DNA of 64,000 nt. It comes from Candidatus Spongiisociaceae bacterium. Lineage in GTDB: Bacteria; Actinomycetota; Acidimicrobiia; Spongiisociales; Spongiisociaceae. The DNA is taken from the NCBI GenBank assembly GCA_965219685.1, contig CBDCOH010000002.1, positions 2,752,001-2,816,000 of the forward strand. The letters are read 5' to 3'. Under the pieces are notes generated by a model that was not told the DNA's origin, did not search any database, and saw only the letters and a program-made list of their open reading frames with translations. The position numbers and the translations under genes were made by a program. Of the stretch, positions 12,567 through 55,518 are shown one piece after another. How positions within the stretch are numbered: position 1 is the first letter of the stretch; each line of letters begins with the position of its first letter.

Positions 12567-13796
12567 TCAGTCCTCAAGGTGTGACGTGATGTTGTAGGTG
12601 GCCAGGACCGGATGGCCGGAGGCTCCGATGGCCACCTGTGTGACCGAGGCGTTGTCGAGGGATGCGAGAAGCCGGGCCTTCTCGAATCCGAAGTCCAGCA
12701 CGGAACCTGCACAGGCTCTGATGGCCCCGCCGTGCGAGACCACCGCCACTCTCCGGCGCGGATGGGTCTCAACCAGCGATTCGAGGAACGGCGCCATTCT
12801 CCGCTGCACCTCGCTCCATGTCTCGCCGGCGTGATCCCAGCCGGGGCCGGCCCCACCCCTCAGGTCTCCACCCCCGCGTCGCGGCGCCTCCACCTCGGGC
12901 CACTTGTCTCCGTCCCGTCCGGCCAGGTCGACCTCCCCTAGCCCCGGAACCGCGACAGGTGGGCCACCACCGAGGATCCCGGCTGTCTCCATCGCCCGGC
13001 CGAGAGGGGACGAGTACACCTGGTCGATCTCCCCGATCCTGTCCCTCAGCCTCTCGGTCTGGAGTTTTCCGCTGGGATGGAGGCCGTCCCGACCGCGCCG
13101 ACCCCTCCGTTCCGCGTTGGCATAGGTAGCCCCATGGCGGATCAACTCCACCACCACCCCTCCTCCCAGCCTCATCTGTTCCGACCAAGCGGGAACGGGA
13201 GCCGGATGAGCCGCATCGTTGAACCGACGCATGACCGCTCCATCCCTCCCGAAGCTCAACTCGCAAAGGGAGGCGTTGGACACGAGCCCGAGGCGGCGTC
13301 GGTCCGACGGGAGGTCCAGAAGGAGCCGCAGGAGGGCGCCTATCAGGCCGGCGTGGGTCACGACCAGAGCGGTCTGACCTTCGTCGAGCCGGCTGACCAC
13401 GTCGTGAACGCCCTCCCAACCGCGCTCTCCAGCTTGCCGGGGAGACTCCCCGGTCACGCCTACGGGCATGTCGTAGTCGTAGTGGAGCCGCTCCAACTCC
13501 TCTCCGAAGTGAGCCATCACATACCGGCGGTCCAGCCCCTCCCACTCGCCCACGTCCCCCTCCCGCCAAATCTGACGGCGACGTGGCTCGAAGCCTGCGG
13601 CTCTCGCCGTATCCACGCACCGTTCCAAGTCCGACGACTCGACAAGCGCCAGGCGCCGACCGGCCAGCCTCCCCCCGGAGCGCCGCGCTTGGCGAAGCCC
13701 CCTGGATGTCAAAGGACTGGAACCTGTCCCCTGCCAGACCCCGCGCGCGTTGGCTGCCGACTCCCCGTGGCGCATCAGGATCACGTTCCTGGCCAA
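12567..13796 (-). CDS. Tandem-domain histidine phosphatase (PGM family), paralogue B
   Basis: Two RHG motifs (MRHGES, IRHGAT), THAG/SHGG; TTG start. Confidence 0.8.
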   Translation of the reverse strand: MARNVILMRHGESAANARGVWQGTGSSPLTSRGLRQARRSGGRLAGRRLALVESSDLERCVDTARAAGFEPRRRQIWREGDVGEWEGLDRRYVMAHFGEELERLHYDYDMPVGVTGESPRQAGERGWEGVHDVVSRLDEGQTALVVTHAGLIGALLRLLLDLPSDRRRLGLVSNASLCELSFGRDGAVMRRFNDAAHPAPVPAWSEQMRLGGGVVVELIRHGATYANAERRGRRGRDGLHPSGKLQTERLRDRIGEIDQVYSSPLGRAMETAGILGGGPPVAVPGLGEVDLAGRDGDKWPEVEAPRRGGGDLRGGAGPGWDHAGETWSEVQRRMAPFLESLVETHPRRRVAVVSHGGAIRACAGSVLDFGFEKARLLASLDNASVTQVAIGASGHPVLATYNITSHLED

Positions 13797-13839: not shown

Positions 13840-15084
13840 CTACCCGGCCCGTGCCTTCTCGAGATGGCCGGTAACGTTGTAGGTGGCGATGGCCGGCTTC
13901 CCGTCCGCGGTTACCACCACCTGGGTCACCGACGTGTTGCCCAGGGACCCGATGAGGCGAGCCTTCTCGAATCCGAAGCCGAGAGCGAAACCCGCGTAGG
14001 CACGTATCGCCCCTCCGTGGGAGGCTACCGCTACCCGACCCCCGGGGTGGGTCCGCTGGAGGGCGTTGAGGAATCCCGAGGTCCTGTTCTGGACGTCGCT
14101 CCATGTCTCGCCGGTATGACCGCGACGGATGTCGTTCCCGTCGGTGGGATACCCGCCCAGCTTGCCGGAAGCCTCGAGTTCTTCCCACAGTTCGCCCTCC
14201 CACTCCCCAAGGCTTATCTCCACCATCTCGTTGACCGGGATGGCCGGTCGCCCGAAAACGAGTTCGGCGGTGGCCATTGCCCTGCCCAGGGACGATGAGT
14301 AGACCTCATCCACCTCTCCGATCCAGCCGCTCAGCTTCAGGGACTGGGCACGTCCGGCGGGATGGAGGCCGTTGTCCCGCCGCCCCTGGACACGGCGCTC
14401 CAGATTGGCGTGGGTAACCCCGTGGCGGATCAGGTCGATCACGATCGCCCCTTGCATGCGCATGTCGGAAGACCAACCGGTCACCGGACCGAGATGGGCG
14501 GCGTCGTTGTATCTAATGAGAGCCGGGCCGTGGTCGTGGAGAGTCAGTTCGGAGAAGGCCGTATTGCTCAACTGAGCTAGCCGGCGACGGCCCGTGGGCA
14601 AATCCAGCAGCCTCCACAGCACCGCGCCGATCAGACCACCATGGGTGACGACCAGTGCGGTCTCCCCGTCGCGCAACCGGGCGACCAGATCATCCAGTGC
14701 CGCACACCCCCGCTCGGCGACCTGCCTGGGTGACTCGCCGGTCACGCCCATTCGCATGTCGTAGTCCCAGTGAAGCCGTGCGATCTCTTCGGCGTAGCTG
14801 TCCTGGGCAAGCCTTTCGGTAATGCCCTCCCACCGACCGATGTCGCCTTCCCGCCATGCGGACCGCTGGAGCGGCTCGAACCCGGCCACTCGAGCGGTGT
14901 CGACGGAACGCTCCAGGTCGGAGGATTCGACGATGGTGAACCGGCGCCCCGCCAGCCTTTCCCCGGCCTTCCCGGCCTGGGCGCGACCTCTCGCCGTCAG
15001 CGGACTGGAACCGGCGCCCTGGAACAGGTGACGCGCGTTGGCCTCGGACTCGCCGTGGCGCATCAGGATCACATGCTTCGCCAT
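13840..15084 (-). CDS. Tandem-domain histidine phosphatase (PGM family), paralogue A
   Basis: MRHGES...THGG and IRHGVT...EISLGEWEG...SHGG. Confidence 0.85.
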   Translation of the reverse strand: MAKHVILMRHGESEANARHLFQGAGSSPLTARGRAQAGKAGERLAGRRFTIVESSDLERSVDTARVAGFEPLQRSAWREGDIGRWEGITERLAQDSYAEEIARLHWDYDMRMGVTGESPRQVAERGCAALDDLVARLRDGETALVVTHGGLIGAVLWRLLDLPTGRRRLAQLSNTAFSELTLHDHGPALIRYNDAAHLGPVTGWSSDMRMQGAIVIDLIRHGVTHANLERRVQGRRDNGLHPAGRAQSLKLSGWIGEVDEVYSSSLGRAMATAELVFGRPAIPVNEMVEISLGEWEGELWEELEASGKLGGYPTDGNDIRRGHTGETWSDVQNRTSGFLNALQRTHPGGRVAVASHGGAIRAYAGFALGFGFEKARLIGSLGNTSVTQVVVTADGKPAIATYNVTGHLEKARAG

Positions 15085-23715: not shown

Positions 23716-23796
23716 TCGCCTTGACATAACCTACGAGCGCTCGAAAAACCTTGGCCCTCCCGCTATATGTCTGCGCGCCGGGCAGGAAGGACGGGA

Positions 23797-26106
23797 ATGG
23801 AAGGAACCGACCTCCTTCGGCTGATCGAACGCTGGCAGGACAGCACCACCTTCGGAGGCGACGTGGTCTACACGCGCCTCCTCCCCGCTCGAGAGGCCCG
23901 GTTCGAGGATCTCGTGCCGCCACCCACCGGCGCACTCGCCGACAGATTGGCCGCGAGAGGCATCAACCGTTTGTACCGGCACCAAGCAAGGGCAGTCCGC
24001 AACATCAGGGCGGGCAACCATGTGGTCCTGGTCTCCGGCACGGCCTCCGGGAAGACTTTGTGCTACCAGATCCCAATCCTCGAGCAGGTTCTACATGACC
24101 CGACCAGGACCGCCCTGCTCATGTACCCCACCAAGGCCCTGGCACAAGACCAGTTGGGCTCTCTCGACCGGTTCGCTATCCCGGGATTGGCGGCGTCCAC
24201 GTACGATGGTGACCTGCCGCCGCACCAGCGGAACCGGGTGAGAAAAACCGCCAACGTCGTCCTCACCAATCCCGACATGCTCCATTACGGGATCCTGCCG
24301 AATCACAGGTTGTGGGAATCGTTCCTCTCCCGGCTGGATCACGTCGTGATCGACGAGATGCACTACCTGCGGGGGGTGTTCGGAAGCCACAGCGCCCGGA
24401 TAGTCCACCGGCTCCGGCGCTTGGCGGCCCACTACGGATCGAGTCCGACGTTCGTCCTGACATCAGCCACTATCAGGAACCCCACCGAGTTAGCGTCACA
24501 CCTCACAGGGCTGGATGTGACGCTGTTGGAAGGAGACACTTCTCCGGCCGGGGAGAGGATGGTGGTCCTGTGGAACCCCCCTTTGGAGGATCCCGAGTCA
24601 GGTGTCCGGCGCTCCCCGATCTACGAAGCGTCACACCTTTACGTGGACCTGGTGCGCCGGGGGATCCGCACCATCGTGTTCGGGCGGAGCCGCAAGACGA
24701 CCGAGTTGATCCACATCGAATCCGCTCGGCGCCTCGGCAAGCTGGCGGATCGCGTCGCTCCCTATAGGGCCGGATACACGGCGGAGGATCGACGGGAGAT
24801 CGAGCGGCGGTTCTTCTCGGGCGAGTTGCTGGGCGTCACGGCCACTAACGCCCTCGAACTGGGGATAGATGTCGGAGGCCTGGACGCCGCTTTGCTCTGC
24901 ACCTTTCCCGGGACCATCTCCTCCTACCGCCAGCAATCCGGTCGCGCCGGAAGATCCCGCGAAACCTCCATGGTCGTGTTGATCGCAGGAGAGGACGCCC
25001 TGGATCAGTACTTCATGCGTCACCCCGATGAACTGCTGGCACGCCCGCCCGAGCCGGCGGTCATCAACCCCGACAACCCACGGATCCTCGATGTGCACGT
25101 GTCCTGCGCCGCCCACGAACTGCCCCTCGCCCTCTCCGACCGCCGGTACTTCGGTGAGGAGTTGGAGGAGGCCGCCCGCAGGCTGGTCCTCACGGGAAGC
25201 CTCCGGCATCGGCACGGGAGGCTCCACTGGACGGGCCGGCGATCACCGGCGCACCAGACGAGCCTCAGGTCCTCGGACAGACGCTCCTTCACGCTGTACG
25301 ACGTGCTGGCGAAGAAGGTCATCGGTGTGTTGGAGTGGGAAAGGGCCTTCTCCGACGCGCACGAGGGCGCCGTGTACCTACACCGGGGCGCCACCTACCT
25401 GATCGAACGCATGGACCTGCACCGCCGGGAGATACTCGCCCGGCCCGGTCCGGTGGGCTACTACACAGAGCCCTACATCGAGAAGGACCTGAGCGTGGTC
25501 GACACCGAGCGGTCCTCGGAGATCGGCCGGACGGCATGCCACCTAGGTCGGGTGAGGGTGGCGTCGCACGTGGTCGGGTTCCGGAACCGCTTCGAAAGGG
25601 GGACAGGCGGACACCGCGAGATCAACAGACTCGACCTACCCCCGGTGGAGATGGAGACCCAGGCGTTCTGGTTCGCACTTACCGACTCTCTCCTGGAAGG
25701 AGCCGGCCTCGAGAGCCGACAAGCCCCCGGAGCCCTGCACGCCGCCGAGCACACCATGATCGGCATGATGCCGCTGTTCGCGATCTGTGACCGCAGCGAC
25801 ATCGGTGGTCTCTCCACCGCATACCATCCCGATACCCGGGGCCCGGCCATTTTCATCCACGACGGGTACGACGGGGGAGCGGGTATCGCTCCCACCGCCT
25901 ACGAAACCGCTGGAGAACTGGTCGCCGCCACCCTGGAGACACTGCTGCAGTGCCCCTGCTCGACCGGGTGCCCTTCGTGTGTCCAGTCGCCCAAGTGCGG
26001 CAATTTCAACGAGCCTCTCTCCAAGATCGGAGCCATCCGGCTTCTCAACGCCTCGCTGGACGAGCCCGCTAATCCAGTCAATCGGTTGGGTGGATCGAAG
26101 CCCTAG
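23797..26106 (+). CDS. DEAH helicase with DUF1998 Cys-cluster (MrfA/SftH/Rv3649-like)
   Basis: GTASGKT, YPTKALAQDQ, DEMH, SAT, TNALELGIDVG, QQSGRAGR, HAAEH, CPCSTGCPSC. Confidence 0.92.
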   Translation: MEGTDLLRLIERWQDSTTFGGDVVYTRLLPAREARFEDLVPPPTGALADRLAARGINRLYRHQARAVRNIRAGNHVVLVSGTASGKTLCYQIPILEQVLHDPTRTALLMYPTKALAQDQLGSLDRFAIPGLAASTYDGDLPPHQRNRVRKTANVVLTNPDMLHYGILPNHRLWESFLSRLDHVVIDEMHYLRGVFGSHSARIVHRLRRLAAHYGSSPTFVLTSATIRNPTELASHLTGLDVTLLEGDTSPAGERMVVLWNPPLEDPESGVRRSPIYEASHLYVDLVRRGIRTIVFGRSRKTTELIHIESARRLGKLADRVAPYRAGYTAEDRREIERRFFSGELLGVTATNALELGIDVGGLDAALLCTFPGTISSYRQQSGRAGRSRETSMVVLIAGEDALDQYFMRHPDELLARPPEPAVINPDNPRILDVHVSCAAHELPLALSDRRYFGEELEEAARRLVLTGSLRHRHGRLHWTGRRSPAHQTSLRSSDRRSFTLYDVLAKKVIGVLEWERAFSDAHEGAVYLHRGATYLIERMDLHRREILARPGPVGYYTEPYIEKDLSVVDTERSSEIGRTACHLGRVRVASHVVGFRNRFERGTGGHREINRLDLPPVEMETQAFWFALTDSLLEGAGLESRQAPGALHAAEHTMIGMMPLFAICDRSDIGGLSTAYHPDTRGPAIFIHDGYDGGAGIAPTAYETAGELVAATLETLLQCPCSTGCPSCVQSPKCGNFNEPLSKIGAIRLLNASLDEPANPVNRLGGSKP

Positions 26107-30650: not shown

Positions 30651-31079
30651 TCACTCCCGCATCCGATGACCGTCCTCGGGGCCGGCGCCCGGCCCTACCA
30701 GTAACGCGACCGGGGAGAACTCAGCCGCGGCGGTGGCTTCCATCGTTATCTCCCGGAACCCCAGGACGGCCGTCCTCAACCGCGCGGTGACGACGGCCGT
30801 TCTGGGACCGTATCCGGGGTCATAGGGGCAGGAGCACCGGACGAGCCGAGCGCCGTTGGCGCGCACCAGACGATCCGCCTCCTCTGAGGGCGAGCCGGTG
30901 GCGCCGAAGGGACGGAACGTCACCGGTGCGGCGGCGAGCGCCCCGGCCTCCGCGGCTGCTACCACCTTCTCCCTCGCCAGGACGACCTGTCCTATCGCGG
31001 CTAGGCCGTACATCAGCACCAACCCGAGTACGACCACACCAACCGCAGCAATCGCCGCCGAGCCTCGCTCCGATCTCAT
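30651..31079 (-). CDS. TadE-like/Rv3654c-family pseudopilin
   Basis: ERGSA N-terminus, TM, AAAEAGALAAA, ANGARLVRC. Confidence 0.75.
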   Translation of the reverse strand: MRSERGSAAIAAVGVVVLGLVLMYGLAAIGQVVLAREKVVAAAEAGALAAAPVTFRPFGATGSPSEEADRLVRANGARLVRCSCPYDPGYGPRTAVVTARLRTAVLGFREITMEATAAAEFSPVALLVGPGAGPEDGHRMRE

Positions 31080-51705: not shown

Positions 51706-52608
51706 ATGGACCTGCTGGCGGTCATCTCCTACCCACCCATACCGATCTTCGACGTCGGCCCGCTTCGCCTGTCGCTGCACGGGGTCTTCGCAGGGGTCGG
51801 GTTCATGACCGGCGCCTACTACGGCCTCAAGATGTTCCACGCCCGCGGGTTCGACGCCGCGCGCTTCCAGTCCGCTCTCACTTGGGCTCTCGTCGGAGCG
51901 CTCCTCGGTGCTCGCTGGTTGACGCTCCCCGCGTACTGGGTGGAGAACGGATTCGACCTGAGCGAGATGATCAACATCGGGGGCAACTACTCCATCATGG
52001 GGGGTTTCGCGGGCGGCATCGGCCTTGGAGTGTTCCGAGCCTACCGACTGGGCCTCAGGATCTGGCCCACCCTCGACGTGACCGCCTTCGGCCTAGCGAT
52101 CGGCACGATCGTCGGGCGGATCGGCGATCTGGCCATAGTCGAGCATCTGGGCGGGCCCACCGACTTCTTCCTAGGCTACGGGATCCGGCCGGGATACGAC
52201 GTGGCGCCACAGCACAACCGCCTGGAATGCACGGTGGCGGAGGTGGGCGAGTATTGCGGCATCTACCACCATGCAGCCTTCTACGACATGTTGGGCGCCA
52301 TCGTGCTCTTCGGGGTGGTGTACTGGCTCTACGAGCGCTCCCGGCTGACACTTCGCTACGGGCAGCTTTTCGCCGTCTGGGTGGCCTGGTACGGCTTCCA
52401 GCGCCTGTTCATAGACTTCACCCGCCTCGCGCTAGATGTCGACGGTGACAGGACCCTCGGCGCGCTCACGTGGAGCCAGTGGAGCGGCCTGGCTGCGGGG
52501 ATCGCGGGCGTCGCCGGACTCCTGTGGCTGGGAAGGCGGAACCGCGCGGTCAGCCCGGAGAACGACCGGCTCTACGGCGCCGTCGCGACCGCGCCTGAGC
52601 CGGATTGA
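51706..52608 (+). CDS. lgt: Prolipoprotein diacylglyceryl transferase
   Basis: GALLGAR, GGFAGG, GRIGDL..EHLG, multi-TM. Confidence 0.8.
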   Translation: MDLLAVISYPPIPIFDVGPLRLSLHGVFAGVGFMTGAYYGLKMFHARGFDAARFQSALTWALVGALLGARWLTLPAYWVENGFDLSEMINIGGNYSIMGGFAGGIGLGVFRAYRLGLRIWPTLDVTAFGLAIGTIVGRIGDLAIVEHLGGPTDFFLGYGIRPGYDVAPQHNRLECTVAEVGEYCGIYHHAAFYDMLGAIVLFGVVYWLYERSRLTLRYGQLFAVWVAWYGFQRLFIDFTRLALDVDGDRTLGALTWSQWSGLAAGIAGVAGLLWLGRRNRAVSPENDRLYGAVATAPEPD

Positions 52609-52610
52609 CG

Positions 52611-52645
52611 ATTAGTTCCTAGTCGGTAGTCTATAGTCTCTAGTT
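52611..52645. repeat. Degenerate (NNTAGTY)5 heptamer run after the lgt stop
   Basis: attagtt cctagtc ggtagtc tatagtc tctagtt. Confidence 0.55.
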
Positions 52646-52875
52646 GGTCATCGCTCGTTAACGTTAAATTGAATCCAGTTACCATTGTCATAGCACTGTT
52701 TGGGTCTCGCGTTGCACCGCGGGTGGCTCTTCACGAGATGGCAGACCCAGTCCCGAGTCCAGGAACAGGGACACACTAGTTTACAGATGTGTTGTACAGC
52801 GTTGTGTAGCGGTCGTAGTGTACGGTCTCTTCTGGTCAGATCCCTTGGAACTAGGGGAGTGGTCGGCCGGCGGGG

Positions 52876-52904
52876 TTGTCCGTCTCGCTCGCGCCGGTTA
52901 GCCT
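52876..52904 (+). promoter_or_regulatory. Sigma-A-type promoter for a leaderless leader peptide
   Basis: TTGTCC-17 bp-TAGCCT, with GTG 7 nt downstream. Confidence 0.6.
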
Positions 52905-52911
52905 TGCCGGC

Positions 52912-52983
52912 GTGAGACCGACGTCTGTGTATACGTATTTCGCCTTTACCGGGCCCGGCGCCCGGGCCCGGCACTGCACGTAG
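52912..52983 (+). CDS. Tyr/Phe-rich attenuator leader peptide (MRPTSVYTYFAFTGPGARARHCT)
   Basis: YTYFAF codon cluster immediately before overlapping hairpins. Confidence 0.7.
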   Translation: MRPTSVYTYFAFTGPGARARHCT

Positions 52984-53009
52984 CACCCACACAACGTCGC
53001 AAGCAAAAG

Positions 53010-53037
53010 GCCCGGAGCAGCCGCTCCGGGCGTTTTT
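53010..53037 (+). terminator. Attenuator intrinsic terminator
   Basis: GCCCGGAGC-AGCC-GCTCCGGGC followed by GTTTTT, 30 nt upstream of the ATG at 53068. Confidence 0.8.
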
Positions 53038-53067
53038 CGTTCACGGGGCGGCCCCACCAGAGGAGCG

Positions 53068-54123
53068 ATGATGGAACGGAGAGCAGTACGCAACGGATCA
53101 GAAACCGACACCGTCGTCAACGTCGGACTGACGAGGTTCGGTCACGATCCCTTCCCTGTCATCGCCGGCCCCCGAGCGGTGGAGTCGGAGTCACAGATAA
53201 TGCAGGTGGCCACTGCCGTGGCCGAGGCGGGCGCGTCCTTGCTCCGCGGAGGCGTGTTCGAGTCGAGCCCGTCCCCGTACGCCTTTCCCGGTCTGGGAGA
53301 ACCAGGCTTGAAGCTGCTCAAGAAGGCCGGGGAGGAGGTCGGCCTACCCACCGTCACCAAGGCGCTCGAACCCAAGGACGTCAGCATGGTCGCCGCCCAC
53401 GTCGACATGATCTACGTGGATCCCGGATCGATGCAGAACTTCGAACTCCTGCGCGTCATCGGCCGGTCCGGCAAACCGGTCCTCCTCGAACGGGGCGGTT
53501 CCGCCACGGTCGACGAATGGCTGTGGGCTGCGGAGTACGTGCTCGCCGAGGGCAACAACCAGGTGGTCCTCTGCGAAGCCGGAATCCGGACCTTCGAGAA
53601 ATCCACGAGAGCGACGCTCGACCTGAGTGCCATTCCCGTTCTCAAGGAGAAGAGTCATCTCCCGGTGATCGTGGCCCCGTCCGCCGCGGTCGGGTCACCG
53701 GGGCGGATCCAACCGCTCGCACTGGCCGCCCAGGGCGTGGGGGCCGACGGGATCATGATCGAGGTACATCCGGATCCGAGCACATCCCGGACCTTTGTCT
53801 CGCATCACATCACGATCGAGGCGTTCAGCAGGCTGATGGACGCGCTCGGCGTCAACCGGATCCGCATGAACATAGACATGATCGACCGCGATCTGGTACG
53901 CCTGCTTGCCAGGCGGCACCACCTGGCCATGGAAGTCGGGCGGATCAAAGCGGAGCGGGGAATGCCCGTCCAGATTCCCGAACGCGAGGAGGAGCTCCTG
54001 GGGATCATCCGCGAGGAGGCGGAAGTGGTGGGGTTGGACCCCGACCAGGTCGAGAGGATCTTCATCCTGATACTCGAGCAGTCCCGCAACGCGCAGCACC
54101 GGAAGCGAGCCGGGAGTTGGTAG
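53068..54123 (+). CDS. Degenerate type I-beta DAHP synthase domain fused to C-terminal AroQ chorismate mutase
   Basis: IAGP..RGG..SPY..MQNF..GIRTFE..TLDLSA..IEVH scaffold; CM motifs IRMNIDMID, LARR, GRIK, PERE, SRNAQ. Confidence 0.85.
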   Translation: MMERRAVRNGSETDTVVNVGLTRFGHDPFPVIAGPRAVESESQIMQVATAVAEAGASLLRGGVFESSPSPYAFPGLGEPGLKLLKKAGEEVGLPTVTKALEPKDVSMVAAHVDMIYVDPGSMQNFELLRVIGRSGKPVLLERGGSATVDEWLWAAEYVLAEGNNQVVLCEAGIRTFEKSTRATLDLSAIPVLKEKSHLPVIVAPSAAVGSPGRIQPLALAAQGVGADGIMIEVHPDPSTSRTFVSHHITIEAFSRLMDALGVNRIRMNIDMIDRDLVRLLARRHHLAMEVGRIKAERGMPVQIPEREEELLGIIREEAEVVGLDPDQVERIFILILEQSRNAQHRKRAGSW

Positions 54124-54285
54124 CACAGTTGAGCTAAACCGACCGGTTTTCTACGTAGAGCAGGGGAAATAGCGTATCAATTTGCCGGTTTCGGCCCGCG
54201 TACGGTCCGGCCGTTGGATATTCTTCCTCTCCCCGGCCGACTGGCCGAGGAGCAATACTCGGGACCGCCAAGGAGAGGAGGAGGC

Positions 54286-55518
54286 GTGGCACGGGACAAA
54301 TCGGGACCTTCGCTGGAGGAGACTCTGGAGACGAAGGTAGACCGCAGGGACTTCCTCAAGAAAGCAGGAATGACAGTTGCAGCCGGCGGGTTGCTCGCCG
54401 CCGTAGCAGCATGTGGCGACGACGAGCCTGCGCCTGAGACAACCGCGGCACCCGCCGCCGACGACACCACTACCACCGCCGCCGAAGCGGTCGAAGTGGT
54501 GATGAGCGAGGGTGGGCCGGAGATCGAATGGGAGATGGGCACGAGCTGGCCGCTCTCCCTGGACACGATCTACGGAGGCGCCGCGGACTTCGCCGAGCGC
54601 GTCTCGGCGATGACCGGCGGCCGGTTCAACATCACGCCCCGAGCGGCGGGCGAGCTCGTACCGGGACTTGAGGTTCTGCAGAACGTCCAGCAGAACGCCA
54701 TCCCGGCCGGCCATACCGCGTCGTACTACTACGTGGGCCTGAGCCCCGCCACGGCGTTCAACACCGCTCTGCCCTTCGGGTTCACCTACCGGCAGCAGAA
54801 CGCGTGGATGTACGAGGGCGGCGGCCTGCAACTGATGCAGGACTTCTACGCGGACCGCTTCGGCGTGATCAACTTCCCGGCCGGCAATACCGGAGTCCAG
54901 ATGGGCGGTTGGTTCAACAAGGAGATCAACTCCAAGGCGGACTTGGAGGGACTACGCATGCGGATCCCCGGCCTGGGAGGCAAGGTTATGGAGAAGCTCG
55001 GCGTCACCGTCCAGGTGCTACCAGGCGGTGAGATCTTCCAGGCGCTCCAGACCGGCGCCATCGACGCCACCGAGTGGGTCGGCCCGTACGACGACACGAC
55101 CATGGGGTTCCACGACGTGTCCACCTATTACTACTACCCCGGGTGGTGGGAGCCGGGCCCCGAGCTCGACGTGTTCATCCCGCTGGCGGAGTGGAACGAG
55201 CTGCCCGAGGAGTACCGGGTGATTGTCGAAGCCGCGGCCTACGGCGCCAACGCCACCATGATGGCGCGCTACGACGCCAAGAACCCGGCCGCTCTGCAGA
55301 CGATCCTCGAGTCGGACATCGAACTCCGGCCGTTCCCGGATGACGTGATGCAGGCTTCTCAGGATGCCGCATTCGAACTCTTCGACGAGACAGCCGCGGA
55401 TGACAGTGACTTCGCGTCGATCTTCGCCGAGTGGAAGAGCTTCCGCGACGGGATCACGCGATGGCATGGCCTTGCGGAGACAGCCATGGTCAGTTGGACG
55501 GGTCGCCACACGGCCTGA
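54286..55518 (+). CDS. dctP: TRAP substrate-binding protein (TakP-like), Tat lipoprotein
   Basis: RRDFLKK Tat motif, VAAC lipobox, [36 protein letters not shown]. Confidence 0.9.

Follow-up and report, generated by a model that had tools for sequence, protein, structure and literature searches.

A putative DAHP synthase pseudoenzyme fused to a predicted chorismate mutase behind a candidate phenylalanine/tyrosine attenuator in Acidimicrobiia

A stretch of 64,000 nucleotides from a Candidatus Spongiisociaceae bacterium (assembly GCA_965219685.1, contig CBDCOH010000002.1, positions 2,752,001 to 2,816,000 of the forward strand; below, the window) contains, at 53068..54123 (+), a gene in which a 3-deoxy-7-phosphoheptulonate synthase (DAHP synthase, DAHPS) barrel is fused to a chorismate mutase (CM). 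This gene probably codes for a CM of the phenylalanine/tyrosine branch that is carried on a catalytically dead type I-beta DAHPS barrel, the latter being kept as a partner of the mutase, and that is preceded by a leader for control by attenuation. The degenerate active site of the barrel, the integrity of the CM domain, the selection acting on both and the conserved leader are presented below, after which other roles of the barrel are considered.

Domain organization and annotation of the fusion protein

The open reading frame (ORF) that had been noted earlier at this position is real and spans 351 amino acids from ATG 53068. The second ATG (53071) is the probable start of the coding sequence, as suggested by a Shine-Dalgarno-like GAGGAG (53060..53065, +) and by 350-residue homologues that begin with MER; a GGAG-type sequence precedes the start in most of the related loci described below. 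Pfam analysis revealed a DAHP_synth_1 domain (PF00793; residues 25-252; E 2e-53) and a CM_2 domain (PF01817; residues 265-344, profile positions 1-80 of 80; E 3.1e-21), confirming the prediction of a DAHPS barrel and a CM in one intact frame. The order of barrel, linker and C-terminal CM is that of the DAH7PS-CM of the Porphyromonas/Prevotella type. In addition, the protein scored 292 bits with TIGR01361 (curated cut-off 268) and 308 bits with NF009239 ('bifunctional 3-deoxy-7-phosphoheptulonate synthase/chorismate mutase'; curated cut-off 279). As both NCBIfam cut-offs are exceeded, a standard annotation pipeline would call this protein a DAHP synthase, and its database relatives already bear the name of DAHPS or bifunctional DAHPS/CM.

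An AlphaFold2 model of the monomer, built with an alignment of 56 rows, reached a mean predicted local distance difference test score (pLDDT) of 82.7, and blocks of ten residues within the barrel scored mostly 82-98, with one block at 66. When compared by Foldseek with the solved DAHPS structures 1vs1 and 4c1k/4c1l, the modelled barrel gave template modelling (TM) scores of 0.93-0.95, normalised to target length, with root-mean-square deviations of 1.3-1.8 Å. Both the family profiles and the fold thus identify the barrel (53101..53853, +; residues 12-262) as a homologue of type I-beta DAHPS with a TIM-barrel fold.

Degeneration of the DAHP synthase active site

The active site of this barrel is degenerate. 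HMMER alignments to solved I-beta chains (1vs1 of A. pernix, 1zco of P. furiosus, 3nvt of Listeria and the chimera 4grs) revealed that GPC is replaced by GPR, with Arg36 in the column of the metal-binding cysteine, and KPRTS by ESSPS (Glu65, Ser67 and Pro68). Similarly, IGARN has become VDPGS (residues 117-121, with Asp118, Pro119 and Gly120), LLKRG has become LLERG (Glu141 in the lysine column), CERG has become CEAG (Ala171 in the arginine column), DPSH has become APSA (Ala203 and Ala206), and ALSD has become SRTF (residues 240-243, with Phe243 in the aspartate column). Each substitution listed in the original prediction, namely GPR, ESSPS, VDPGS, LLERG, CEAG, APSA and the loss of ALSD, was borne out by these alignments, and the scaffold motifs SPY, MQNF, GIRTFE, TLDLSA and IEVH are retained in the barrel, as had been described.

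Nine residues were considered key to DAHPS activity, with roles in binding metal, phosphoenolpyruvate (PEP) and erythrose 4-phosphate (E4P) that are known from structures of the T. maritima and P. furiosus enzymes. The window protein retains one of the nine, Glu232. The columns of the four metal ligands of a working I-beta DAHPS (Cys of GPC, His of DPSH, Glu of EVH and Asp of ALSD) are occupied by Arg36, Ala206, Glu232 and Phe243, with the glutamate alone kept; across 150 representatives of the wider family, taken at 50% identity, these columns are canonical in 136-142. The cationic PEP/E4P set is gone as well, with Glu65, Ser67, Gly120, Glu141 and Ala171 in the columns of the KPRT lysine and arginine, the GAR arginine, the KRG lysine and the ERG arginine. 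Since all nine residues occur together in 123 of the 150 representatives, with each column canonical in 136-148, the losses of the window protein go far beyond chance. Catalytic equipment of both domains, as in a bifunctional DAH7PS-CM, is not found in the window protein, and its DAHPS activity has presumably been lost.

The chorismate mutase domain

The AroQ CM domain (53860..54099, +; residues 265-344) carries the CM_2 domain and the full set of active-site residues of this family. In an ungapped alignment to the Escherichia coli CM (1ecm), Arg266, Arg283, Lys294, Arg306, Glu307 and Ser339 fall on active-site residues, and Gln343 is present just beyond the end of the printed alignment. The E. 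coli equivalents are Arg11, Arg28, Lys39, Arg51, Glu52, Ser84 and Gln88. The domain aligns to 2d8d too. All of these residues are invariant in 81 copies of the gene (the window and 80 related loci), except for Ser339, which is present in 76 and replaced by alanine in five. The intact Arg/Arg/Lys/Arg-Glu/Ser/Gln set that had been read from the sequence is thus borne out by both the 1ecm alignment and the conservation in these copies, and the CM half is likely to be catalytically active.

A model of a two-copy complex reached an interaction prediction score from aligned errors (ipSAE) of 0.50, compared with 0.00 for the best control, with a partner pLDDT of at least 86. Among proteins of solved structure, 20 out of 30 one-chain pairs and one out of 23 single chains attained this value. 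The model runs agreed in at least 94% of the contacts, and all confident contacts lay within CM residues 268-338. In this model, the CM pairs as the usual AroQ homodimer, a result that may stem from the memory of solved AroQ dimers; the model is a likeness to known AroQ dimers rather than a demonstration of binding.

Distribution of the degenerate fusion and selection on the barrel

A scan of species-representative genomes matched 503 stretches, 465 of them encoding a relative; the counts given here cover the best 80 loci together with the window (n = 81). These 80 loci belong to metagenome-assembled genomes (MAGs) titled Acidimicrobiia, Actinomycetota, Actinomycetes, Candidatus Spongiisociaceae/Spongiisocius or 'bacterium'. 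The frame is open, without internal stops, in the window and in all 80 loci. The 81 copies retain one to six of the nine key residues. Among them, the KPRT arginine is canonical in none, the KRG lysine in nine, the ALSD aspartate in ten and the GAR arginine in 11, in which it sits in an HVDPRS context. The Cys of GPC (48/81), the DPSH histidine (54/81) and the ERG arginine (56/81) are canonical more often, and the EVH glutamate is canonical in all 81, Glu232 and His234 of this motif being invariant or nearly so. Similarly, the 120 nearest database homologues (57-96% identity) all contain both Pfam domains and retain one to six of the nine residues, with the KPRT arginine present in a single one. 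The lack of the KPRT arginine in every genome copy and the maximum of six key residues in any of them indicate that the loss is common to the orthologues and is not a strain-specific decay, a point on which the original prediction depended. The barrel is hence an enzyme homologue without its catalytic residues, with a loss common to its orthologues, as befits a pseudoenzyme.

The most degenerate copies, with one or two of the nine residues kept, form a clade of 25 members that holds the window, consists largely of sponge-associated Spongiisociaceae and is closely related (72-96% identity). One MAG contains a degenerate copy of the fusion on each of two contigs (L063 and L080), both about 56% identical to the window protein and with nearly the same motif pattern; these could be a pair of paralogues or reflect a bin of two strains.

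Within the clade of 25 members, the ratio of nonsynonymous to synonymous substitution rates (dN/dS) was calculated pairwise by the Nei-Gojobori method (NG86) for the 232 out of 300 pairs with a dS of 0.05-1.5. The median was 0.124 in the barrel and 0.184 in the CM; for the single pair of the window and its nearest locus (L001), the two domains gave 0.133 and 0.097, respectively. Five neighbouring genes in the same genomes gave dN/dS values of 0.05-0.16. As the value of the barrel lies inside this range, the barrel is constrained in the way of ordinary working genes. This check, which had been proposed along with the idea of a selected barrel, supports that idea. In a working DAHPS, the columns of the active site are the most conserved ones. 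Here, 13 former active-site columns had a mean entropy of 1.64 bits versus 1.08 bits for the barrel domain, which is above 97.5% of random column sets. Purifying selection on the barrel is thus accompanied by relaxation at its former active site, the combination by which a pseudoenzyme is recognised.

The upstream phenylalanine/tyrosine leader

The spacer of 460 nt ahead of the fusion gene contains a leader-peptide ORF (52876..52983, +) that begins at TTG 52876 or at the in-frame GTG 52912, ends in ...TSVYTYFAFTGPGARARHCT and has its stop codon TAG at 52981-83. Phenylalanine and tyrosine codons are clustered within this ORF (TAT ACG TAT TTC GCC TTT; 52930-52947, +). Directly 3' of them lies a GC-rich hairpin (52949..52971, +; arms 52949-58 and 52962-71), representing candidate attenuator segments 1 and 2. 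It is followed by a hairpin resembling an intrinsic terminator (GCCCGGAGC-AGCC-GCTCCGGGC; 53010..53031, +) with a run of T residues (53033-37) some 31 nt ahead of ATG 53068. An upstream ORF rich in aromatic codons and a terminator between the leader stop and the gene, as expected of an attenuator, are thus both present. The segment 52915-53045 has a minimum free energy of -61.9 kcal/mol (z -5.29), and none of 200 shuffles folded as well. Furthermore, CCGGGCC in the first hairpin is complementary to the 5' arm of the terminator and could pair with it, providing a candidate antiterminator match of 7 nt in the window; an exact upstream complement of at least 6 nt was found in 53 of the 81 loci, and one of 5 nt only in the other 26 terminator-bearing loci.

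A homologous short ORF with a core rich in phenylalanine and tyrosine occurs across the family and ends 22-41 nt before the hairpin. Its core reads [FY][FY]x[YF][FY]xFTG, with Phe and Tyr interchanging, as exemplified by the tails RFAYYFFTG, RFYGYFVFTG and VYYADFAFTG. At least four Phe plus Tyr within eight residues were found in 67 of the 81 loci. This density was reached by only seven of 405 other-frame translations and, taking the best of six frames, by 50 of 1620 shuffles. Anchoring on F[TA]G was possible for 66 of the 81 loci, and in these the aromatic columns swap TAT for TAC, TTT for TTC and Phe for Tyr. Tryptophan is rare in the leaders (25 of 1900 residues). With a regular expression, the terminator stem was retrieved from the window and from 79 of the 80 loci, at 33-75 nt ahead of the start, and an independent mechanical search found a stem with a T tail in 79 of 81. 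A scan against Rfam returned no family in the window at the gathering threshold; in a relaxed scan of the leader, the best match was Thr_leader (20 bits, E 0.26), which is below threshold and at chance level. No site was called in a sigma-70 promoter scan of 52500-54400. The first ~90 nt past the stop of the upstream Lgt-family gene (52610-52700) are strikingly rich in AT against the 64-67% G+C of the window, and the promoter of the leader transcript could lie in this region.

As judged from the sequence, the leader and its hairpins have the anatomy of ribosome-mediated attenuation, and the attenuator presumably works. The presence of codons for Phe and Tyr, and not for Trp, indicates a control that fits a CM gene, and the leader and terminator would mark the fusion gene as one of the Phe/Tyr branch. 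The conserved leader would moreover be independent evidence that selection acts on the CM half. Attenuation of CM or DAHPS genes by aromatic leader peptides is known (PMC11802643 and PMC3082878, both in excerpt). For instance, the aroR leader of C. glutamicum, which carries Phe-Tyr-Phe, attenuates aroF (an excerpt of PMC11802643, citing Neshat et al. 2014). The pheL-pheA pair of E. coli and the aroR-aroF pair of C. glutamicum are alike in that a short ORF with Phe or Phe-Tyr-Phe stands before a terminator and ahead of a CM or DAHPS gene. The present leader differs from both in belonging to another sequence family and in fronting a pseudo-DAHPS/CM fusion in Acidimicrobiia. No published description of this leader family was found in a literature search that was aimed at the leader to a limited extent.

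Phylogeny of the fusion

Two trees were calculated by quick searches, one of 65 barrel domains and one of 61 full-length rows rooted on other canonical CM fusions, neither of them containing a verified DAH7PS-CM sequence of P. gingivalis or P. nigrescens. In the barrel tree, the 26 sampled degenerate barrels of Acidimicrobiia formed one clade, with a support of 99 in the Shimodaira-Hasegawa-like approximate likelihood ratio test (SH-aLRT). Its sister was P0123, a fusion of 360 residues with all motifs canonical (SH-aLRT 98). A search with P0123 retrieved canonical fusions at 62-78% identity, one of them (P0274) named 'Actinobacteria bacterium', as well as further partly degenerate forms, one of which is named 'bifunctional ... 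[Acidimicrobiia bacterium]'; P0069 and P0316 bear the source name 'Acidimicrobiia bacterium'. In the full-length tree, canonical actinobacterial fusions were basal, and the main degenerate clade (22 rows, support 99) and four smaller degenerate groups were nested among them. By parsimony, the canonical or degenerate state changed at least three times, several of the relevant forks being weakly supported. More than one loss of the canonical state is read from these trees, the count not being firm.

Degenerate DAHPS sites were also encountered in unrelated architectures (P0149, P0162, P0198, P0219 and P0235, of 667-688 amino acids, and P0172 and P0259). In the proteins of about 670-690 residues, a CM at the N-terminus is followed by a stretch of about 300 residues and, at the C-terminus, by an I-beta barrel without several key residues; next to them lie canonical proteins built in the same way (P0126-P0128 and others). 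The death of a DAHPS barrel beside a CM may hence be a recurrent theme beyond Acidimicrobiia.

Role of the barrel

The most likely course of events starts from an ancestral actinobacterial DAHPS-CM fusion that would have lost the need for its own DAHPS chemistry, with another DAHPS presumably supplying DAHP; the type II enzyme is usual in Actinobacteria. The fused mutase would still have depended on its barrel, making the latter indispensable as a structural or kinetic, and possibly regulatory, partner. The barrel would then have persisted as a pseudoenzyme, its fold remaining under purifying selection and its old active site drifting. At its C-terminus, the AroQ domain would dimerise in the usual way, and the leader with its Phe/Tyr codons and terminator would set the expression by ribosome-mediated attenuation. 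The dependence of the CM on the barrel is assumed by analogy with the P. gingivalis fusion, in which the Km for chorismate is 19 µM for the full-length protein and 207 µM for the isolated CM, with kcat unchanged, and in which the isolated barrel is monomeric and the CM holds the dimer (PMC12202928). It is because cutting off the P. gingivalis barrel raises the Km of the CM tenfold that the present barrel is thought to be kept as a partner of the mutase.

Several points weigh against this interpretation. Support of the CM by the barrel is derived from the P. gingivalis analogy rather than from the window protein, and the complex model gave no confident contacts between barrel and CM or between barrels. 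The linker and the first CM helix were poorly modelled in the monomer (pLDDT below 50 at residues 263-278), as would be expected of a domain that folds only as an intertwined dimer. More distant members of the family retain up to six of the nine residues, including the Cys, His and Glu of the metal site, and some chemistry or metal binding may persist in them. In the clade of 25 members, Arg36, Asp118, Pro119 and Ala203 do not vary, and Glu65 and Glu141 hardly do; such invariant replacements could fit a new function as easily as a shared ancestry. Finally, if there were no other DAHPS, one would have to assume an unorthodox activity of the barrel, a different start of the pathway or auxotrophic cells. 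No DAHPS or other aromatic-pathway gene was detected among the 49 ORFs of the window (NCBIfam scan), nor was a DAHPS or aromatic-pathway gene among 88 flanking proteins of 12 diverse loci (Pfam scan), and a search of 929 kb with short motifs of the type II, I-alpha and I-beta enzymes gave no true match, the two hits being out-of-frame chance matches.

It is conceivable, though to be held tentatively, that the barrel has been turned into a new regulatory organ of the CM, either serving as an allosteric receptor or docking onto the cell's real DAHPS, which is probably of type II. As an allosteric receptor, a role considered rather unlikely, the dead barrel would bind Phe, Tyr, prephenate or another effector in its remodelled pocket and signal to the CM. 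The roles in the Bacillus-type enzyme, in which the CM-like domain regulates an active DAHPS, would then be truly reversed; the 'role reversal' put forward in the original prediction is fair as a description of the sequence pattern only. In the Prevotella fusion, the CM is activated when the DAH7PS site is occupied, and the DAH7PS is inhibited by prephenate at the CM (PMC8408635, in excerpt), indicating that a path for communication between the domains exists in the barrel-CM architecture. The replacement residues that are invariant or nearly so in the nearest clade and the lower dN/dS of the barrel compared with the CM also favour a receptor. However, the greater variability of the former active-site columns than of the average barrel column does not resemble a single ligand site shared by the family, and the invariance among the 25 members may merely reflect their closeness. 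A single new ligand pocket throughout the family is therefore ranked below a scaffold, because the pocket columns vary. Still less likely is a docking module that hetero-oligomerises with the real DAHPS of the cell, which would make the fusion a covalently tagged analogue of the mycobacterial CM-DAHPS complex. The CM of M. tuberculosis needs the complex with DAHP synthase for high activity (PMC7762937, in excerpt), and many I-beta DAHPS barrels are oligomeric (Protein Data Bank entries with 2-10 chains). Against docking, the searches of the window, the flanking proteins and the 929 kb produced no candidate DAHPS partner, and an Lgt-family gene alone is conserved among the neighbours (58 of the 80 loci). 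The DAHPS expected in Actinobacteria is of type II, a fold family other than that of the I-beta interfaces, which counts against docking too, as does the monomeric state of the isolated P. gingivalis barrel (PMC12202928).

A barrel that is still catalytic, forming DAHP through unorthodox residues or performing a new reaction on non-phosphorylated substrates, is very improbable. The invariant or nearly invariant Glu232 and His234 of the EVH motif would suit such an activity, and distant members keep not only the Cys, His and Glu and the ERG arginine but also Lys or Arg at two other sites. Enzymes of the NeuB type use non-phosphorylated sugars, and the barrel has a weak Pfam match to NeuB (E 5.9e-06). 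This match is confined to the shared barrel core (residues 82-198), however, and in the window protein three of the four metal ligands are gone, as are the cationic PEP/E4P residues, two of the latter now being glutamates that should repel phosphate and carboxylate groups; the pocket columns, moreover, vary across the family. As to a decaying gene, a strain-specific loss or an assembly artefact, the motif loss itself, and nothing more, speaks for it. The frames open in the window and in 80 out of 80 loci and the dN/dS of 0.12 ruled it out, and the copy in L001, 96% identical and syntenic, and the conserved regulatory leader upstream leave it a negligible probability. The reading of the barrel as a retained, non-catalytic partner of the mutase is preferred.

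Genomic neighbourhood

In the nearest locus (L001), synteny extends over leuC, leuD, the Lgt-family gene and the TRAP transporter genes. The fusion gene is immediately preceded by the gene coding for an Lgt-family (PF01790) membrane protein (51706-52608, +). No other neighbour is conserved throughout the family; this one was retrieved upstream of the fusion in 58 of the 80 loci at 50-96% identity and about 200-1100 nt from the match, and in many distant loci it comes after a UbiA-family gene and genes for cytochrome oxidase subunits. The window copy scored 55 bits with the NCBIfam Lgt profile (cut-off 119) and may not be a true Lgt. Conserved operon partners were considered as a clue to function and set aside, as this gene alone is conserved and no link to the fusion was found.

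Elsewhere in the window, two adjacent genes of about 410 residues (12567-13796, - and 13840-15084, -) code for proteins with two histidine-phosphatase domains each (alpha-ribazole phosphatase/phosphoglycerate mutase family), forming a tandem of internally duplicated proteins. A DECH-box helicase gene (23767-26106, +) matched the 'helicase/secretion neighbourhood' family TIGR03817 with 830 bits, just under the cut-off of 874, and a gene for an Rv3654c-family TadE-like protein (30651-31079, -) is found near it. Together they resemble an actinobacterial neighbourhood of the Tad-pilus type, which fits the actinobacterial origin of the window.

Comparison with known systems and significance

DAHPS-CM fusions in both domain orders, CM-DAHPS complexes and aromatic leader peptides are known. 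The closest counterparts are the DAH7PS-CM proteins of P. gingivalis and P. nigrescens (PgiDAH7PS-CM and PniDAH7PS). Here too, within about 350-366 residues, an unadorned I-beta barrel is followed by a short linker and then by an AroQ CM at the C-terminus. They also form a dimer held by the CM, which performs better with the barrel attached (PMC12202928; PMC8408635, in excerpt). These enzymes are truly bifunctional, whereas the present barrel lacks eight of the nine key catalytic residues. According to the abstract of the 2025 P. gingivalis paper, the fusion is specific to periodontal pathogens (PMC12202928). This is contradicted by the canonical and degenerate fusions that are widespread in Actinomycetota MAGs (465 of the 503 stretches with a relative).

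The AroA(Q) proteins of Bacillus, Listeria and Geobacillus (PDB 3nvt and 5j6f) likewise combine a DAHPS barrel and an AroQ domain in one chain, with one domain serving the other, and their barrels align to the present one with E values of 1e-70 to 1e-72. In the Bacillus type, the DAHPS acts as the enzyme, and the role of the CM-like domain is mainly regulatory (PMC5526877, in excerpt). With an N-terminal CM-like domain and an active DAHPS, AroA(Q) thus has the opposite order and, as far as the present sequence indicates, the opposite division of labour. Similarly, the CM-DAHPS complexes of M. tuberculosis and C. glutamicum involve a small actinobacterial AroQ CM that relies on a DAHPS body for both activity and regulation (PMC7762937, in excerpt). 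The DAHPS of the mycobacterial type of complex is of type II, active and a separate chain; the present partner, in contrast, is of type I-beta, dead by sequence and fused. No description of a fusion with a dead DAHPS half and a live CM half was found in the full-text literature, most subscription journals lying outside the searched set; within the literature covered, this agrees with the earlier statement that no such protein was known.

If the barrel were a regulatory organ of the CM, Acidimicrobiia would run a covalent mirror image of the Bacillus enzyme and of the mycobacterial CM-DAHPS complex, and the scattered degenerate lineages would represent a ratchet, in which the fused mutase could not shed its barrel after the chemistry of the latter had become useless. 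For annotation, the finding means that metabolic reconstructions of Acidimicrobiia, sponge symbionts included, will credit the shikimate pathway's initial step to a domain that is almost certainly unable to perform it. For enzymology, DAHPS-CM fusions being a model for modular allostery, a module that is dead but retained offers a natural experiment on the non-catalytic service of the barrel to the mutase. Lastly, the graded series from canonical forms over those that keep the metal site to those that have lost everything, with more than one apparently independent loss, makes this family suited to the study of how pseudoenzymes arise and persist.

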